A stretch of DNA of 63,989 nt, filler included, from Sandaracinaceae bacterium (GTDB lineage: Bacteria > Myxococcota_A > Polyangia > Polyangiales > JADJQN01): NCBI GenBank assembly GCA_947483975.1. It is 5 parts of 5 records of this genome, joined end to end, with 100 filler letters (N's around TTAATTAATTAA, not from the genome) between each part and the next. Parts side by side here need not be neighbours in the genome. Positions count along the whole stretch, not along the records: positions 39,151 to 51,748 come from CANKOL010000127.1; 4 more parts are not named here. One strand, 5' to 3'. Within the stretch, counting starts at the first letter, position 1. Each line of letters starts with the position of its first letter. This document shows positions 43,601 through 46,600 of the stretch, piece by piece. The position numbers are program-made.

Positions 43601-46600
43601 GTGTCGGTGTTTCCCGCGGTGCCACCGCCGCGAGCCGCGCGCCATGGCCGGTCCCAGGCGTCCTCTTCGTCCGTCCGATGTTCGCTCGGCGCTCAGTTCT
43701 CGATGCGCTGCGGGGGCACCGTCGGACGGTGAGGGGCTACCGCCCATCGAGTGCGCGTCGACCCGACCAAGGTTGGGCTACCCGACCAAGGTTGGGCTGG
43801 ATGTGGGCACCTGGTGCCGCGTCGGGGAGGCGTCCTCGAGGCGGCCTTCGGACCCGACGCTCCGCTCTCCCGGTCTAATCGAAGCCGCCCACTGGCTTCC
43901 GGTGCTGTCGGCGCCTCCGGGCAACCCGCGGCAATCCAGTCTTGCGCGCCGCTCGGCTACACCGCGGCCTCGACGGCCACGGTCCGCGTGGCGCCCCGCT
44001 ACGCGCCCGCTGTGCCCGTCGTTTGCGTGTACGGCGTCTCTACGCGGCGACGGCCGCGCCGTGATGCCGCACCATCCACCAAGTGCCGGCGGGGAACACT
44101 GCGTCACGGAGCCCGGCACGCCATCGAGCGAGCGCCGCGTCGTACGCCGCGCGAAAAGCGCGCAACGCGCGGACCGCAGCCTGATACGCACCCGGGACAC
44201 CGCCTACCGCGAACGTGGGATTGCGCGACGCGAGTGGCTCGAAGCTCGTCGCTCGGTCGTGCGGCGATACGTTCTCGGCGCGCTCGGCCCCGAGGAACTT
44301 CCAGCCCTTGTCGGCGACCTCTTGGCGAGCGCGCGTCTCGTGCTCGGCTGCCGAGGCGCGCGCGGCGTCGCGCCACGCGTCGGCGTCTTCGGCCCCGACG
44401 CCCGGCGGCAACGACAGTTCGAGTTCGGCGTAGTCGGGCCAAGCACCGTTTTCGGCGTCGAAGTAGTAGGCGGGGCGCGCCGCGCGCATACGACCACCCG
44501 CGAGGTCGGCGATGCGGCTCTTGGGGCCTGGCCAGTCGCGCGCATACCGCACGAGCGCCGAGGCGACTGGGTTTGCCAGCGCATAGCCGATCTTGTCGAG
44601 GATCGCCGCGCGTGTCGTCAGCTGAACCACGGACGTCTGCGCGTCGTCCCATGCCGTTCCTTCCCACTCGCGGAGCACTTTGAGCCCGAGCGCCACCGAG
44701 CGATGAAAGTGCGCGAGGAACGCGGGTAGCTCGCCGCACGGGTCAGTCGCTACAAGGTGGTAGTGTGTCGACATGGCGCAGAACGCGTGTATCTGCAGGC
44801 CGTAGCGAGCGGCCGAGACCGCCAGCGCGTAGACGAATAGCTGCCGTACGTCGCGGTCGGGCCGGAGCAAGAAGTGCCTGCGCAGAGTGCGGCGCGTGAT
44901 GAAGACACTGGAGCCGGGGAGGACGGGGCGAGCGCGGGACATCCGCGGACGTGGAGCAGGCGGCGTGCCGGAGGTCGCTTGTGTGATTTCAAGGGGTTAT
45001 GCGGACGAATCGGCGGACTCGCCGACGGCCGCCGCCAGGCCGCCGCCGGAACGTGCGACCAAGGTTGGGCTGGCCGGGCTGCCGGAACGTGCGACCAAGG
45101 TTGGGCTGGCCGACCCAGGTTGGGCTGCTAGCTCGAGGGCTGGCCGACCCAGGTTGGGCTGCTAGCTCGAGTGGAGCGCTTCCGATAGAGCTTTCGTGGA
45201 AGGCGCCGCGCCCCGGGGCGCCGCCTAGGTCGCCGCCTAGGTCGCCGCCGAGGTGCTGACGAGCGCGAGCGACTTCTCGTCGGCCGCGACGCCGAACTCC
45301 GCCGTGCCGCCGTCGCGCAGGTCCCCGAACAGCAGCGCCTCCGCGAGCGCCTTCTTCAGCTGTTGCTCGACGAGGCGCGCCATCGGGCGCGCGCCCATCG
45401 CCGGGTCGTAGCCGTTCACGGCGAGCCAGGTGCGCGCCGACGGCGTGAGCGCGACGGTCACCTTCTTCTCGTCGAGCTGCCGCTGCAGCGCCGCGACCTC
45501 CTTGTCGACGACGAGCAGGATGATCTCGGGCGTCAGCCCGCGGAACAGGATCTGCGCGTCGAGCCGGTTGCGGAACTCGGGCGTGAAGAGCTTCTCGATC
45601 GCGCTCTTGGCCTTGCCCTCGTCGACGCCCGCGCTCGCGCCGAAGCCGATCGACTTCGTCGCGAGGTCCCGGGCGCCCGCGTTCGTCGTCATGATCAGCA
45701 CGATGTTGCGGAAGTCGGCCTTGCGACCGTTGTTGTCCGTCAGCGTCGCGTGATCCATCACCTGCAGGAGGATGTTGAAGATCTCGGGGTGCGCCTTCTC
45801 GACCTCGTCGAGCACGACGACCGCGTGCGGGTGCTTGCGCACGGCGTCCGTCAGCAGCCCGCCCTGGTCGAAGCCGACGTAGCCGGGCGGCGCGCCGATC
45901 AGGCGCGAAACCGTGTGCCGCTCGCCGTACTCGCTCATGTCGTAGCGCAGGAACTCGACGCCCATCACTGCGGCGAGCTGCTTCGCGAGCTCCGTCTTGC
46001 CGACGCCCGTCGGCCCGGCGAAGAGGAAGTTGCCGATCGGCTTGTCCGCCGCGCGCAGCCCCGCGCGCGAGAGCTTGATGCTCGCGGTGATCTGCGCGAT
46101 GGCCTCGTCCTGGCCGAAGATCACCTTGTGGAGCTCTTCGTCGAGGTGCTTCAGCTTGTCGCGGTCTGACGAGCTGACGGTCTTCTCGGGGATGCGCGCC
46201 ATCTTCGCGACGACGTGCTCGATGTCCGCGACGCTGATCGTCTTGCCGCCGCGCAGGCGCACCATCGCGCCCGTCTCGTCGATGACGTCGATCGCCTTGT
46301 CGGGGAGCAGTCGCTCACGGAGGTGGAGCGCCGAGAGCTTGGTCGCCGCCTCGAACGTGCCCGGCTCGTACGTCGCGCCGTGGTGCGTCTCGTAGCGGCT
46401 GCGCAGCCCCTCGAGGATCAGCACGGTCTCGTCCTCCGAGGGCTCGTTGACCTCGATCTTCTGGAAGCGCCGGGCGAGGGCGCGGTCGCGATCGAAGCTG
46501 CTCTTGTACTCCTCGAACGTCGTCGAGCCGATGCAGCGCAGCTTGCCGCTCGCGAGCGCGGGCTTGAGGATGTTGGACGCGTCCATCGAGCCGCCCTGCA

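Follow-up and report, generated by a model that had tools for sequence, protein, structure and literature searches.

A family of RAYT-like Y1 transposases with short non-hairpin end repeats, present as six diverged paralogues in a Sandaracinaceae genome

RAYTs (REP-associated tyrosine transposases) are the textbook example of transposase domestication in bacteria and, to our knowledge, have so far been studied almost wholly in gamma-proteobacteria carrying hairpin REPs. The genome of a Sandaracinaceae bacterium (GCA_947483975.1; G000 below) raises the question of what kind of enzyme is encoded by a gene on contig C127, and how a short repeat that surrounds it and is scattered elsewhere in the genome relates to that enzyme. 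An earlier note had described this gene and five paralogues as a sequence-orphan branch of domesticated RAYTs that spreads its own REP-type hairpin. The gene was found where that note had placed it; the parts of the locus are listed below by their positions in the window, i.e. the whole stretch of DNA analysed (63,989 nt, filler included).

43765..43794, plus strand: downstream (right-end) array, two motif copies CCCGACCAAGGTTGGGCT spaced by 19 nt
43795..44039, minus strand: trailer from the stop codon to the downstream motif, 48% mean column identity among the six copies
44040-44942, minus strand: ORF of 300 aa for a RAYT-like Y1 HUH transposase (contig C127 4890-5792)
Residues 1-140 of the ORF: HUH core, with key residues H60, H62, Y120, and N124
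Residues 141-300 of the ORF: conserved C-terminal extension
44955..44970, minus strand: sigma-54-type -24/-12 element CGGCACGCCGCCTGCT, with its GC 13 nt ahead of the ATG
44983..44992, minus strand: A/T-rich leader box TTGAAATCAC
45026..45049, minus strand: GC-rich dyad/repeat of the leader CCGGCGGCGGCCTGGCGGCGGCCG
45057..45156, plus strand: upstream (left-end) array, four motif copies (two of GACCAAGGTTGGGCT and two of GACCCAGGTTGGGCT)

These parts form a cassette, common to all six genes, in the order end-motif array, GC dyad, AATCAC box, sigma-54-type promoter, ORF, trailer of ~240 nt, and second array. The upstream motif copies are spaced by 36, 19, and 34 nt and lie 115-214 nt ahead of the ATG, and the downstream array lies 246-275 nt beyond the stop codon with its motif antisense to the gene; the two arrays at this locus have the same orientation. 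All six matches to GACCnnGGTTG in the 64-kb window fall within these arrays (0.40 expected), and none of 100 shuffles reached six. In the leader, AATCAC of the A/T-rich box is invariant across the six copies and a same-genus relative (G001), and a GGCGG...CCGCC element, read by eye, occupies the same place in relatives. The trailer is poorly conserved in sequence but kept in length, the first downstream motif lying 232-246 nt past the stop codon in four loci, and it contains no Rfam family and no terminator-like site. No Rfam family was found at the locus, and neither a sigma-70-like promoter nor an intrinsic terminator was detected within 43570-45240.

As the earlier note had stated, the C127 protein matches no Pfam family, here at E<=10. 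Its view that NCBIfam was equally silent, and that the proteins are orphans invisible to sequence profiles, does not hold: the NCBI RAYT model NF047646 (an equivalog) matches residues 5-138 at E 1.3e-9 with 38.1 bits, which is under its 80-bit cut-off, and the same model matches 29/29 family members at E<=0.01 (best, 1.2e-17). The family comprises 1,273 clusters (50% identity) of ~300-aa proteins at E<=1e-30, and relatives are already named 'transposase' or 'REP element-mobilizing transposase RayT' in public sources. A family profile finds 4er8, a RAYT (TnpA-REP), at E 4.3e-5 and brings both the HUH and the Y..NP..WP motifs into register; it pairs iaYvlaNPvaaglVryardWpG with vdYIYINPVKHGWVKQVSDWPF of 4er8, and the class-2 signature Y-x-x-x-N-P followed by W-P is present. 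In the 29-member alignment, H60, H62, and Y120 are invariant (29/29), as the earlier note had proposed from six sequences, and the HuH-Y distance is 58 aa, whereas Y133, which it had also listed, lies outside the invariant or near-invariant columns. An AlphaFold2 model of the protein (pLDDT 92.4, pTM 0.91) gave 4er8 as Foldseek rank 1 (E 5.5e-6, TM 0.73 on the target, rmsd 2.4), and VIA-align placed 4er8 first as well (Z 13.2, rmsd 3.0, 157/165 residues aligned), followed by IS608 TnpA (Z 9.1). The earlier placement of the protein as an HUH/Y1 enzyme nearest to the REP-associated tyrosine transposase is thus borne out by profile, Foldseek, and VIA-align. Profiles and the predicted fold alike place it in the TnpA-REP (RAYT) class of Y1 HUH enzymes. 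It has a Y1 HUH core, the HUH motif, and one tyrosine within the Y..NP helix ahead of WP, and it belongs to a large, mostly myxobacterial family. A homodimer prediction scored 0.00 and gives no verdict.

The additional ~160 residues noticed earlier are conserved throughout the 29-member alignment and pack on the HUH core in the AlphaFold2 model. When the C-terminal part was folded by itself, the model was weak (pLDDT 73.7, pTM 0.41) and its structure matches reached at most Z 3.5; the ESM Atlas matches to residues 141-300 are unnamed Myxococcota clusters only, with scores of <=0.90. The protein is accordingly much longer than 4er8 (300 vs 165 aa), and its 160 conserved residues differ from the C-terminal extension of ~25 aa, inhibitory in function, described in the parts of the RAYT literature available to us (PMC2817692, PMC3333891, PMC3479197).

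Among TnpA-Y1 proteins, the family resembles, on the accessible parts of PMC6006769, subclasses with large C-terminal domains: it has a class-2-type Y..NP and a long conserved C-terminal part, occurs as several diverged copies per genome, and shows no REP-like structure beside the gene. It differs from subclass 2.3 of the same source, which has a HuH-Y distance of ~110 aa, insertions in the core, and a distribution in Chromatiales and Alteromonadales; the present family has a distance of 58 aa and no such core insertions. Subclass 2.1, to which 20/26 of the TIRYTs listed there belong, carries a C-terminal helix-turn-helix, whereas none is found here by Pfam (Bac_DnaA_C, HTH_23, and HTH_28 are absent from 26 relatives at E<=1). 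Y..NQ is given there as the IS200 type (Table 1, PMC6006769), in contrast to Y..NP here. No description of the myxobacterial family was found in the available portions of the literature on RAYTs and related tyrosine-transposase elements (including PMC2817692, PMC5581495, PMC3733652, and PMC6006769), and Sorangium, Myxococcus, Haliangium, and Chondromyces are unnamed in the main text and two supplementary files of PMC6006769.

In a tblastn search of the 524-contig genome, exactly six gene copies were found, in an assembly that is 81% complete and may lack, or have collapsed, recent identical copies. They lie at the places named by the earlier note, and pairwise comparison agreed with its amino acid identities of 61-81%; DNA identities are 66-81%. 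All six are intact and 300-301 aa long, including the copy on C69, which is 300 aa and not 270 aa as previously recorded. The dN/dS ratio is 0.16-0.33 in 15/15 pairs, and the six paralogues are old genes, maintained under purifying selection. The conserved leader (~105 nt) had been aligned in five of the six copies but is present in 6/6 and in G001; likewise, the association of motif and gene, previously seen at three of the six loci, extends to all six, with motif variants on both sides of every gene. The flanking arrays are inverted at C69, C139, and C119 and run in the same direction at C127, C460, and C7. The idea that each paralogue has its own motif variant was rejected; variants are common to several loci, and the two sides of a single locus carry different ones. 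A sequence on C56 resembles a seventh copy cut by the contig end.

The end motif that brackets all six genes is 14 nt long (CGACC-NN-GGTTG) and can be read as a short imperfect dyad of 12-16 nt, CCGACC-NN-GGTTGR. The 65 sites of its core, ACCAAGGTTG, counted previously on both strands were found again, although 3.8 rather than about three are predicted from base composition; the reversed word has none. The repeat is spread over the genome: the wider motif GACCnnGGTTG occurs at 134 sites and its reversed control at 10. Of the motif sites, 102 are more than 600 nt away from the nearest of the six genes, and 98/134 are outside crude coding calls, which make up 76% of the genome. A flanking 16-mer occurs exactly at 26 places and is the 12th commonest 16-mer in the genome, a modest number beside the average repeat numbers of 57 and 140 given for groups 2 and 3 in the accessible text of Bertels et al. 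(PMC5581495). The repeat is also lineage-specific: CGACCAAGGTTGAG occurs 43 times here and was found in 1/40 related genomes, and G001 contains none of this genome's motif.

It had been taken for a REP-type hairpin of 20 nt, but the full form, CCGACCnnGGTTGAGGTCGG, is present at 7/133 sites only, and 31-mers at the sites fold no better (-4.27 kcal/mol for the sense and -3.88 kcal/mol for the antisense strand) than 1,500 random intergenic 31-mers (-4.75 kcal/mol). The repeat is therefore not a REP hairpin. RAYT repeats are palindromic hairpins with a GTAG foot and REPs form inverted doublets, whereas the copies here are neither and are arranged head-to-tail; the substrates in solved RAYT and IS200/IS605 structures are hairpins, in contrast to a motif with no excess hairpin potential. 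What is shared with the RAYT/REPtron arrangement is a gene lying between copies of a short repeat whose further copies are scattered through the genome.

Differences in the arrays could be seen by comparison. One contig of run X6, from another sample, lacks exactly 19 nt at 43761, i.e. one array unit. Eight array loci were compared with G001 for synteny, and C333 alone was clean: its nine-unit array is absent from the syntenic intergenic region of G001. C25 has two-sided synteny but with an extra gene in G000; matches are one-sided at C171, C5, and C151 and one-sided and weak (65% identity) at C15; and C38 and C103 show no synteny with G001.

Of 151 genomes of the phylum, 33 carry the family, in 1-14 copies per genome, and no match to it was found among 72,556 plasmids. 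Two copies in the relative G016 are 99.2% identical over 1,439 bp, and the identity begins and stops at the inverted motif (start, GGGGAGAT..CGTAACCnnGTTGG; end, CCAACCTGGTCACGATCTCCCC). In G181, four copies were compared with a fifth; two are 95-96% identical to it over ~1.2-1.3 kb and the others 89-91%, and partial tandem copies lie at the ends of two copies. By eye, the same cassette layout is present in most of 20 relatives' loci from six genomes (the exceptions being L019, L024, and L025), and the flanks are inverted in most; an inverted 14-mer test between flanks had no power, since shuffled flanks reach 12/14 in 21/25 loci. In G011, G016, and G022, the local end motif lies mostly beside gene copies, with the downstream copy antisense to the gene. 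The near-identical copies in relatives show the cassette (1.2-1.45 kb) to move there as a unit with the motif as its terminal inverted repeat, in the manner of a TIRtron. The same copies bear on domestication, which the available text of Bertels et al. 2017 (PMC5581495) marks by a copy number of about one per genome and the absence of duplicates at >=95%: G000 has six copies, none at >81% DNA identity, but G016 has two at 99.2% and G181 copies at 95-96%. The proteins are RAYT-like, as the earlier note had it, but domestication is doubtful for the family, because relatives hold copies that are 95-99% identical in DNA; in copy number and in this identity, the family departs from RAYTs.

Set beside the published groups by description, a close arrangement is that of TIRYTs and TIRtrons, in which RAYT-like genes lie between terminal inverted repeats instead of REPs. 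In the accessible part of PMC3733652, TIRtron repeats in some hosts are moderately abundant and single, paired, or clustered; the ends in G016 and G024 start with GGGGAGATC, near the GGGGWSAS of TIRtrons given there, whereas the G000 motif lacks the GGGG part. The family also shares with IS200/IS605 elements such as IS608 and ISDra2 an HUH/Y1 core and a gene-carrying unit that multiplies in genomes, with a weaker match (Z 9.1 vs 13.2 for 4er8). In those elements TnpA is ~150 aa long, the hairpins are subterminal, and copies within a genome share very high identity; the proteins here are twice as long, their ends are inverted sequence repeats rather than one-strand subterminal hairpins, and a unit of 1.2-1.45 kb leaves little room for a second gene.

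The multiplication of cassettes raises the alternative that this is an ordinary active IS family and that the gene-less arrays are its relics (solo ends remaining after deletion between the two arrays of a cassette, or products of one-ended or abortive transposition) rather than REP-like self-standing units. The patchy, multi-copy distribution, the near-identical copies with partial tandem ends in G181 and G016, and the possible seventh copy on C56 are all consistent with it, and because the arrays at C127, C460, and C7 are direct repeats, recombination between them would leave one array. However, no two of the six genes exceed 81% identity in DNA, yet one motif 16-mer recurs without change at 26 places, which makes the gene-less copies look younger than any copy of the gene; in relatives rich in gene copies, gene-less motifs are few or absent; and no leader homology except the promoter box is found beside the gene-less copies. 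We consider this alternative improbable. Gene-less combinations of motif and promoter were also tried as left-end relics and rejected, as leader homology in nine segments is limited to the box itself.

The arrays might instead be pre-existing host repeats that served as the insertion target of the cassette, as insertion sequences that target REPs are known. The same-orientation flanks at C127, C460, and C7, and the GGGCT variant that both flanks of C127 have in common, would fit such targeting, which is nevertheless very hard to reconcile with the inverted flanks at C69, C139, C119, and (by eye) most relatives' loci, with the motif lying inside the 99%-identical block of G016, and with its near absence away from genes in G011, G016, and G001. 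We regard it as highly improbable.

Sigma-54-dependent promoters have a GG and a GC element at -24/-12, spaced by ten bases, and an activator site upstream. GGCAC-N5-xxGC was found by script 12-16 nt ahead of the predicted start in 20/26 loci from seven genomes. Genome-wide, such boxes ahead of long ORFs peak at 13-14 nt (25 cases) over a background of mostly 1-3 per offset. With the GC 13 nt ahead of the ATG, a leaderless mRNA is implied. Such a putative sigma-54-type promoter 13 nt ahead of the start across the family appears to be undescribed, and no sigma-54-driven RAYT was found in the literature searched.

As a third alternative, the motif could be primarily cis-regulatory, i.e. an upstream activating sequence recognized by a sigma-54 enhancer-binding protein or by some other dimer that binds DNA, with cassettes carrying it because their promoter is sigma-54-dependent and arrays growing through replication slippage; transposase action on gene-less copies would then be unneeded. 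The motif is a dyad, if an imperfect one, and shows no excess of hairpins. At all six genes it is found 115-350 nt ahead of the box, and an A/T-rich AATCA-type element often separates motif and box (by eye). The genome also contains rpoN. In 7/32 intergenic gene-less clusters, a GGCAC-N5-xTGC box lies within 400 nt pointing away and in one pointing toward the motif, compared with 1.7 and 1.0% of random intergenic positions, respectively (excess, p 8e-7), and a scrambled box pattern shows no excess near these clusters. Conversely, 138 intergenic boxes have the motif upstream in seven cases and downstream in none. This association of gene-less motifs with other sigma-54-type promoters is beyond chance and appears to be undescribed. 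What a cis-regulatory motif leaves unaccounted for is the second, downstream copy at 6/6 genes and in relatives, and the identity of the 99%-identical copies stopping exactly at the motif. In addition, the motif accompanies only those 7/138 boxes, the sigma-54 box beside the C333 array is kept in G001 without any array, and, with G001 of the same genus lacking the motif, no conserved regulon is seen. A primarily regulatory motif is unlikely in our judgement, if less so than IS relics.

On balance, we favour a RAYT-class Y1 transposase in a TIRtron-type cassette, whose end motif has been spread in trans in this lineage. The protein would recognize the imperfect dyad CCGACC-NN-GGTTGR and would nick and rejoin one strand beside it by an HUH/tyrosine mechanism. 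It may also have acted in trans on gene-less motif units, which now number ~100 copies, mostly intergenic, and which would have grown by head-to-tail duplication of 19-44 nt units. As gene-rich relatives have few or no gene-less motifs, spread in trans is seen in this one genome only. The same-orientation flanks at C127, C460, and C7 count against this reading, as do the motif's lack of excess hairpin potential, the single clean syntenic comparison among eight array loci, and the incomplete assembly. The position of one-quarter to one-third of the intergenic gene-less clusters upstream of sigma-54-type promoters suggests regulation or targeting, neither of which is predicted by the transposase model.

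The family is set apart from the studied RAYTs by its >1,200 clusters, its 160-residue extension, and its ends, which are short sequence repeats and not hairpins. It also combines two behaviours, namely IS-like multiplication of the cassette in relatives and, in this genome, old genes with a multiplied gene-less motif. These features together make it a natural system for how a Y1 transposon turns REP-like. A conserved sigma-54-type leaderless promoter would make expression of the transposase strictly activator-dependent, and the excess of gene-less motifs upstream of sigma-54-type promoters suggests that a transposon end may supply or target enhancers. More speculatively, and with considerable reservation, the end motif could have a second role, that of a portable sigma-54 enhancer. 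The cassette's own leaderless promoter would then have its activator site in the left end, the enzyme would have scattered gene-less copies in this lineage that now lie in activator position ahead of at least 10 other sigma-54 promoters, and the enzyme family would be an undescribed class-2 Y1 subclass that reads its ends as sequence, not as hairpins. If this were true, a sigma-54 regulon would be undergoing rewiring by a family of transposon-end repeats.

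The assembly (5.29 Mb in 524 contigs, approximately 70% G+C, 81% complete), several contigs of which are strung together in the window, was searched in full with tblastn, and the search recovered the same six gene copies at the six places that the earlier note had named. The copy in the window is as follows.

44040 to 44942, minus strand: open frame on contig C127, encoding P0001 (300 aa)

The other five copies lie on contigs C7, C460, C139, C119, and C69. All six are intact and encode proteins of 300–301 aa, including the C69 product, which had been described as 270 aa long and measures 300 aa. 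The copies share 61–81% protein and 66–81% DNA identity in pairwise comparisons, with dN/dS values of 0.16–0.33 for all 15 pairs, and are old, each being under selection for retention.

P0001 matched no Pfam family at E ≤ 10. The NCBIfam model NF047646 (REP-associated tyrosine transposase) matched residues 5–138, nearly its entire length, with an E-value of 1.3e-9 and 38 bits against a cut-off of 80. In an alignment of 29 relatives, H60, H62, Y120, and N124 are invariant, and the profile derived from it matched 4er8, the structure of the Escherichia coli REP-associated tyrosine transposase (E 4.3e-5) in an alignment that pairs both the HUH motif and the Y..NP..WP helix. An AlphaFold2 model of the full chain using that alignment as input (pLDDT 92.4, pTM 0.91) also retrieved 4er8 as the first Foldseek match (E 5.5e-6, TM 0.73 on the target, rmsd 2.4, 149 columns), the TnpA proteins of ISDra2 and IS608 ranking next, and VIA-align against 48,161 chains again placed 4er8 first (Z 13.2, 157 of 165 residues aligned; runner-up IS608 TnpA, Z 9.1). 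Because these profile and structural searches all point to 4er8, the first 140 residues constitute a RAYT-class Y1 HUH core. Residues 141–300 are also conserved and are packed with confidence in the full-chain model; the C-terminal half contains 15 invariant columns in the 29-relative alignment, including R156, P157, W168, G213, G218, P242, F263, Y267, G277, and F283-P284-x-G286-T287. Folded alone, these residues gave a weak model (pLDDT 73.7), with which a structure search found no match. In the models, their behaviour is that of an appendage to the core and not of a free-standing domain.

The description of the family as a sequence orphan could not be sustained, since NF047646 matches all 29 relatives (best E 1.2e-17), a family profile reaches 1,273 clusters of 50% identity at E ≤ 1e-30 (3,664 at E ≤ 1e-10 and 11,744 at E ≤ 1e-3), and relatives have already been named. 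At least 470 relatives were found by a word-indexed search, and the best 120 of these are mostly 300–306 aa long; among the matches listed, many are called ‘transposase’ (NCBI; Sorangium and Minicystis) or ‘REP element-mobilizing transposase RayT’ (JGI). Pfam Y1_Tnp was found below threshold in 11 of the 26 relatives scanned and barely at threshold in one. Its distribution across whole genomes is patchy and multi-copy: of 41 relatives from the same order, 24 carry the family, as do 33 of the 151 genomes sampled across the phylum (E ≤ 1e-20; 1–14 matches each). No members were found among the 72,556 plasmids searched.

The associated repeat has a core, ACCAAGGTTG, that occurs at 65 sites in the genome (3.8 expected; reversed word, 0), and its conserved unit reads CCGACC[A/G]AGGTTGAGG. 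The wider form GACCnnGGTTG occurs at 134 sites versus 10 for its reversal, with AA (64), GA (36), GT (12), CA (6), or GG (6) as the central pair. These sites form 70 clusters, 22 of which contain two or more copies, with uniform orientation inside every cluster and typical spacings of 19 to ~44 nt, and many arrays contain ‘stutter’ duplications starting directly after the core, e.g. AGGTCGGCAGAGGTCGGCA. Only 36 of the 134 sites overlap coding sequence, although a crude GC3-based gene caller assigned 76% of the genome as coding. The 20-nt hairpin proposed in the earlier note is present at 7 of 133 sites, and folding of the sites is no stronger than that of 31-mers drawn at random from intergenic DNA (−4.27 and −3.88 versus −4.75 kcal/mol). 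CGACC and GGTTG constitute an imperfect dyad that, if folded, contains a G·T pair on one strand and an A·C mismatch on the other. Solved RAYT and IS200/IS605 substrates have hairpin potential, whereas the motif found here does not, which is a real difference. The commonest 16-mers of the genome, GACGACGACTGCGACG and its shifts (42–53 copies), are more numerous than the motif and probably derive from an Asp- and Cys-rich coding repeat. Another repeat at which the assembly breaks is a 148-nt sequence (C103 1–148) identical to the starts of C229, C94, and C4 and 94% alike to C39 19942–20088.

Motif variants flank all six genes on both sides, 125–350 nt before the start and ~230–390 nt past the stop, in inverted orientation at C69, C139, and C119 and in the same orientation at C127, C460, and C7. 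All six GACCnnGGTTG matches in the window belong to the two arrays that flank the gene (0.40 expected; none of 100 shuffles reached six). Six other genomes supplied 20 loci of relatives; read by eye, most of these run from motif through GC dyad, often an AATCAC box, promoter-like box, ORF, and trailer to inverted motif, frequently with tandem cassette ends; this layout was not seen at loci L019, L024, and L025. In the related genomes G011, G016, and G022, the local end motif (7, 11, and 10 sites, respectively, by pattern counts) mostly adjoins gene copies, and its copies downstream read antisense to the gene. Two G016 copies share 99.2% identity across 1,439 bp, in a block that opens at GGGGAGAT..CGTAACCnnGTTGG and closes at CCAACCTGGTCACGATCTCCCC. 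Four copies in the related genome G181 are 95–96% (two) or 89–91% (two) identical to a fifth over ~1.2–1.3 kb, and at two of the compared loci the 3′ part is partially repeated in tandem. Because such near-identical copies delimit the mobile unit, the motif is the terminal repeat of a mobile cassette; a rival reading takes it as a target of insertion. By analogy with solved relatives, the tyrosine would nick and rejoin one strand beside the motif, and the joining of two neighbouring sites would duplicate a unit.

Read by eye, the G011 locus L008 (C18) carries in its upstream flank a tandem duplication of the entire leader, from end motif and dyad to AATCAC box and promoter box, and a similar duplication in which no AATCAC box was seen occurs upstream of L009 (C6). 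A tRNA gene is followed at ~200 nt by the cassette in two of the 20 relatives' loci (tRNA-Leu at L010 622–706 in G011; tRNA-Met at L018 2017–2093 in G025), and no nearby tRNA was found at any of the six loci of the present genome. Other features of the window are listed below; no link between the first two and the cassette was seen.

45237 to 47597, minus strand: ClpA/ClpB-type double AAA+ protein (Clp_N, AAA, AAA_2, ClpB_D2-small)
42160 to 43569, plus strand: 469-aa protein with a signal-peptide-like start and a HELGH motif (by eye), no Pfam match
24495 to 25739, minus strand, another contig: four tRNA genes and a small SRP RNA in a row

In total, 102 of the 134 motif sites are located >600 nt away from all six genes. 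The sequence CGACCAAGGTTGAG occurs at 43 sites in this genome, at one in G022, and at none in the remaining 39 related genomes; G001, which belongs to the same genus, lacks it, yet contains a single gene copy (62% identical) flanked by a motif of its own. The 16-mer CGACCAAGGTTGAGGT, the 12th commonest of the genome, is found exactly at 26 places, whereas no gene pair exceeds 81% DNA identity, and the gene-less copies therefore look younger than the genes. A 9-unit array on C333 occupies an intergenic region whose flanking genes are both syntenic in G001, the spacer being 433 nt here and 166 nt and motif-free in G001; a contig of a different sample has one 19-nt unit fewer in the array downstream of the window gene. 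These observations are consistent with gene-less units that spread and turn over, the C333 case being the one clean synteny comparison from eight, although such arrays could also be read as relics of an ordinary insertion sequence. On C25 (L032 1575–2126), a glutathione-peroxidase-like gene, whose G001 homologue is elsewhere, lies between two genes adjacent in G001, with a three-unit motif array directly at its 3′ end.

The best-supported reading is that the genes form a RAYT-class Y1 transposase family in ‘TIRtron’-like cassettes bounded by a short sequence repeat, and that in the present lineage this end repeat has proliferated by itself, as REPs do. The finding is real and richer than first described but is not a new class. 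In the portions of the literature consulted, RAYTs are defined as flanked by two inverted REPs (Nunvar 2010, PMC2817692), and the E. coli enzyme is described as monomeric, its inhibitory tail being ~25 aa long (Messing 2012, PMC3479197). Insertion-sequence-like and domesticated groups were split by ≥95% duplicates and flanking 16-mer abundance (Bertels 2017, PMC5581495). TIRYTs/TIRtrons are RAYT-like genes flanked by non-REP inverted repeats, some of which form moderately abundant families (Di Nocera 2013, PMC3733652), and some Y1 subclasses have been described that lack REPs but carry a large C-terminal domain (Quentin 2018, PMC6006769). Because of these RAYT, TIRYT/TIRtron, and Y1-subclass descriptions, the kind is already known. 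By description, the present family is set apart from the published Y1 subclasses, having no helix-turn-helix domain and a HuH–Y distance of 58 aa. The myxobacterial genera looked for are not mentioned in the same portions of PMC2817692, PMC3733652, and PMC6006769 with two of its supplements, nor are ‘Sorangium’ and ‘Deltaproteobacteria’ in those of PMC5581495.

All six genes carry GGCAC-N5-xTGC 13 bases before the ATG. This element fits the sigma-54 −24/−12 consensus and rpoN was found in the genome; no Shine-Dalgarno sequence was evident by eye upstream of the genes, and a scan of the locus found no sigma-70-like site. Of 26 loci from seven genomes, 20 have the element 12–16 nt ahead of the predicted start, including loci of relatives whose leaders otherwise differ. 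C56 1–313, where three motif copies in an array precede a leader-like stretch whose sigma-54-type box is identical to that of the C139 copy and is directed off the contig start, is probably a seventh gene copy severed by assembly. Genome-wide, there are 160 such boxes, and the distance from the box to the start codon of a long GC3-rich ORF peaks sharply at 13 nt (18 cases) and 14 nt (7), against a background of mostly 1–3 and at most 8 per offset, and RAYT-like genes account for only six of these 25. Example boxes are as follows.

C25, ~8834, minus strand: GGCAC-N5-xTGC
C38, ~15750, minus strand: GGCAC-N5-xTGC
C18, 4667, plus strand: GGCAC-N5-xTGC

Because the boxes peak before long ORFs that are mostly not RAYT-like, this pattern suggests that leaderless sigma-54 mRNAs are general in this organism.

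The box is also linked to the gene-less motif. Among 32 intergenic gene-less clusters, a box within 400 nt is directed away from the motif in 7 and toward it in 1, compared with 1.7 and 1.0% of random intergenic positions (p 8e-7). A looser pattern gave 10 of 32 clusters versus ~5% and an independent canonical pattern 4 of 32 versus 1.7% (p 0.002), and a scrambled pattern gave no excess at these clusters. Conversely, the motif lies upstream of 7 of 138 intergenic boxes and downstream of none. Between motif and box, no homology to the gene leaders was found beyond the box itself, and the C333 box and its gene are kept in G001 without the array. The motif may act as an activator site, units may land preferentially upstream of sigma-54 promoters, or both; a primarily regulatory motif is a rival reading. 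This link to sigma-54 is the part of the finding that would be unexpected to a specialist.
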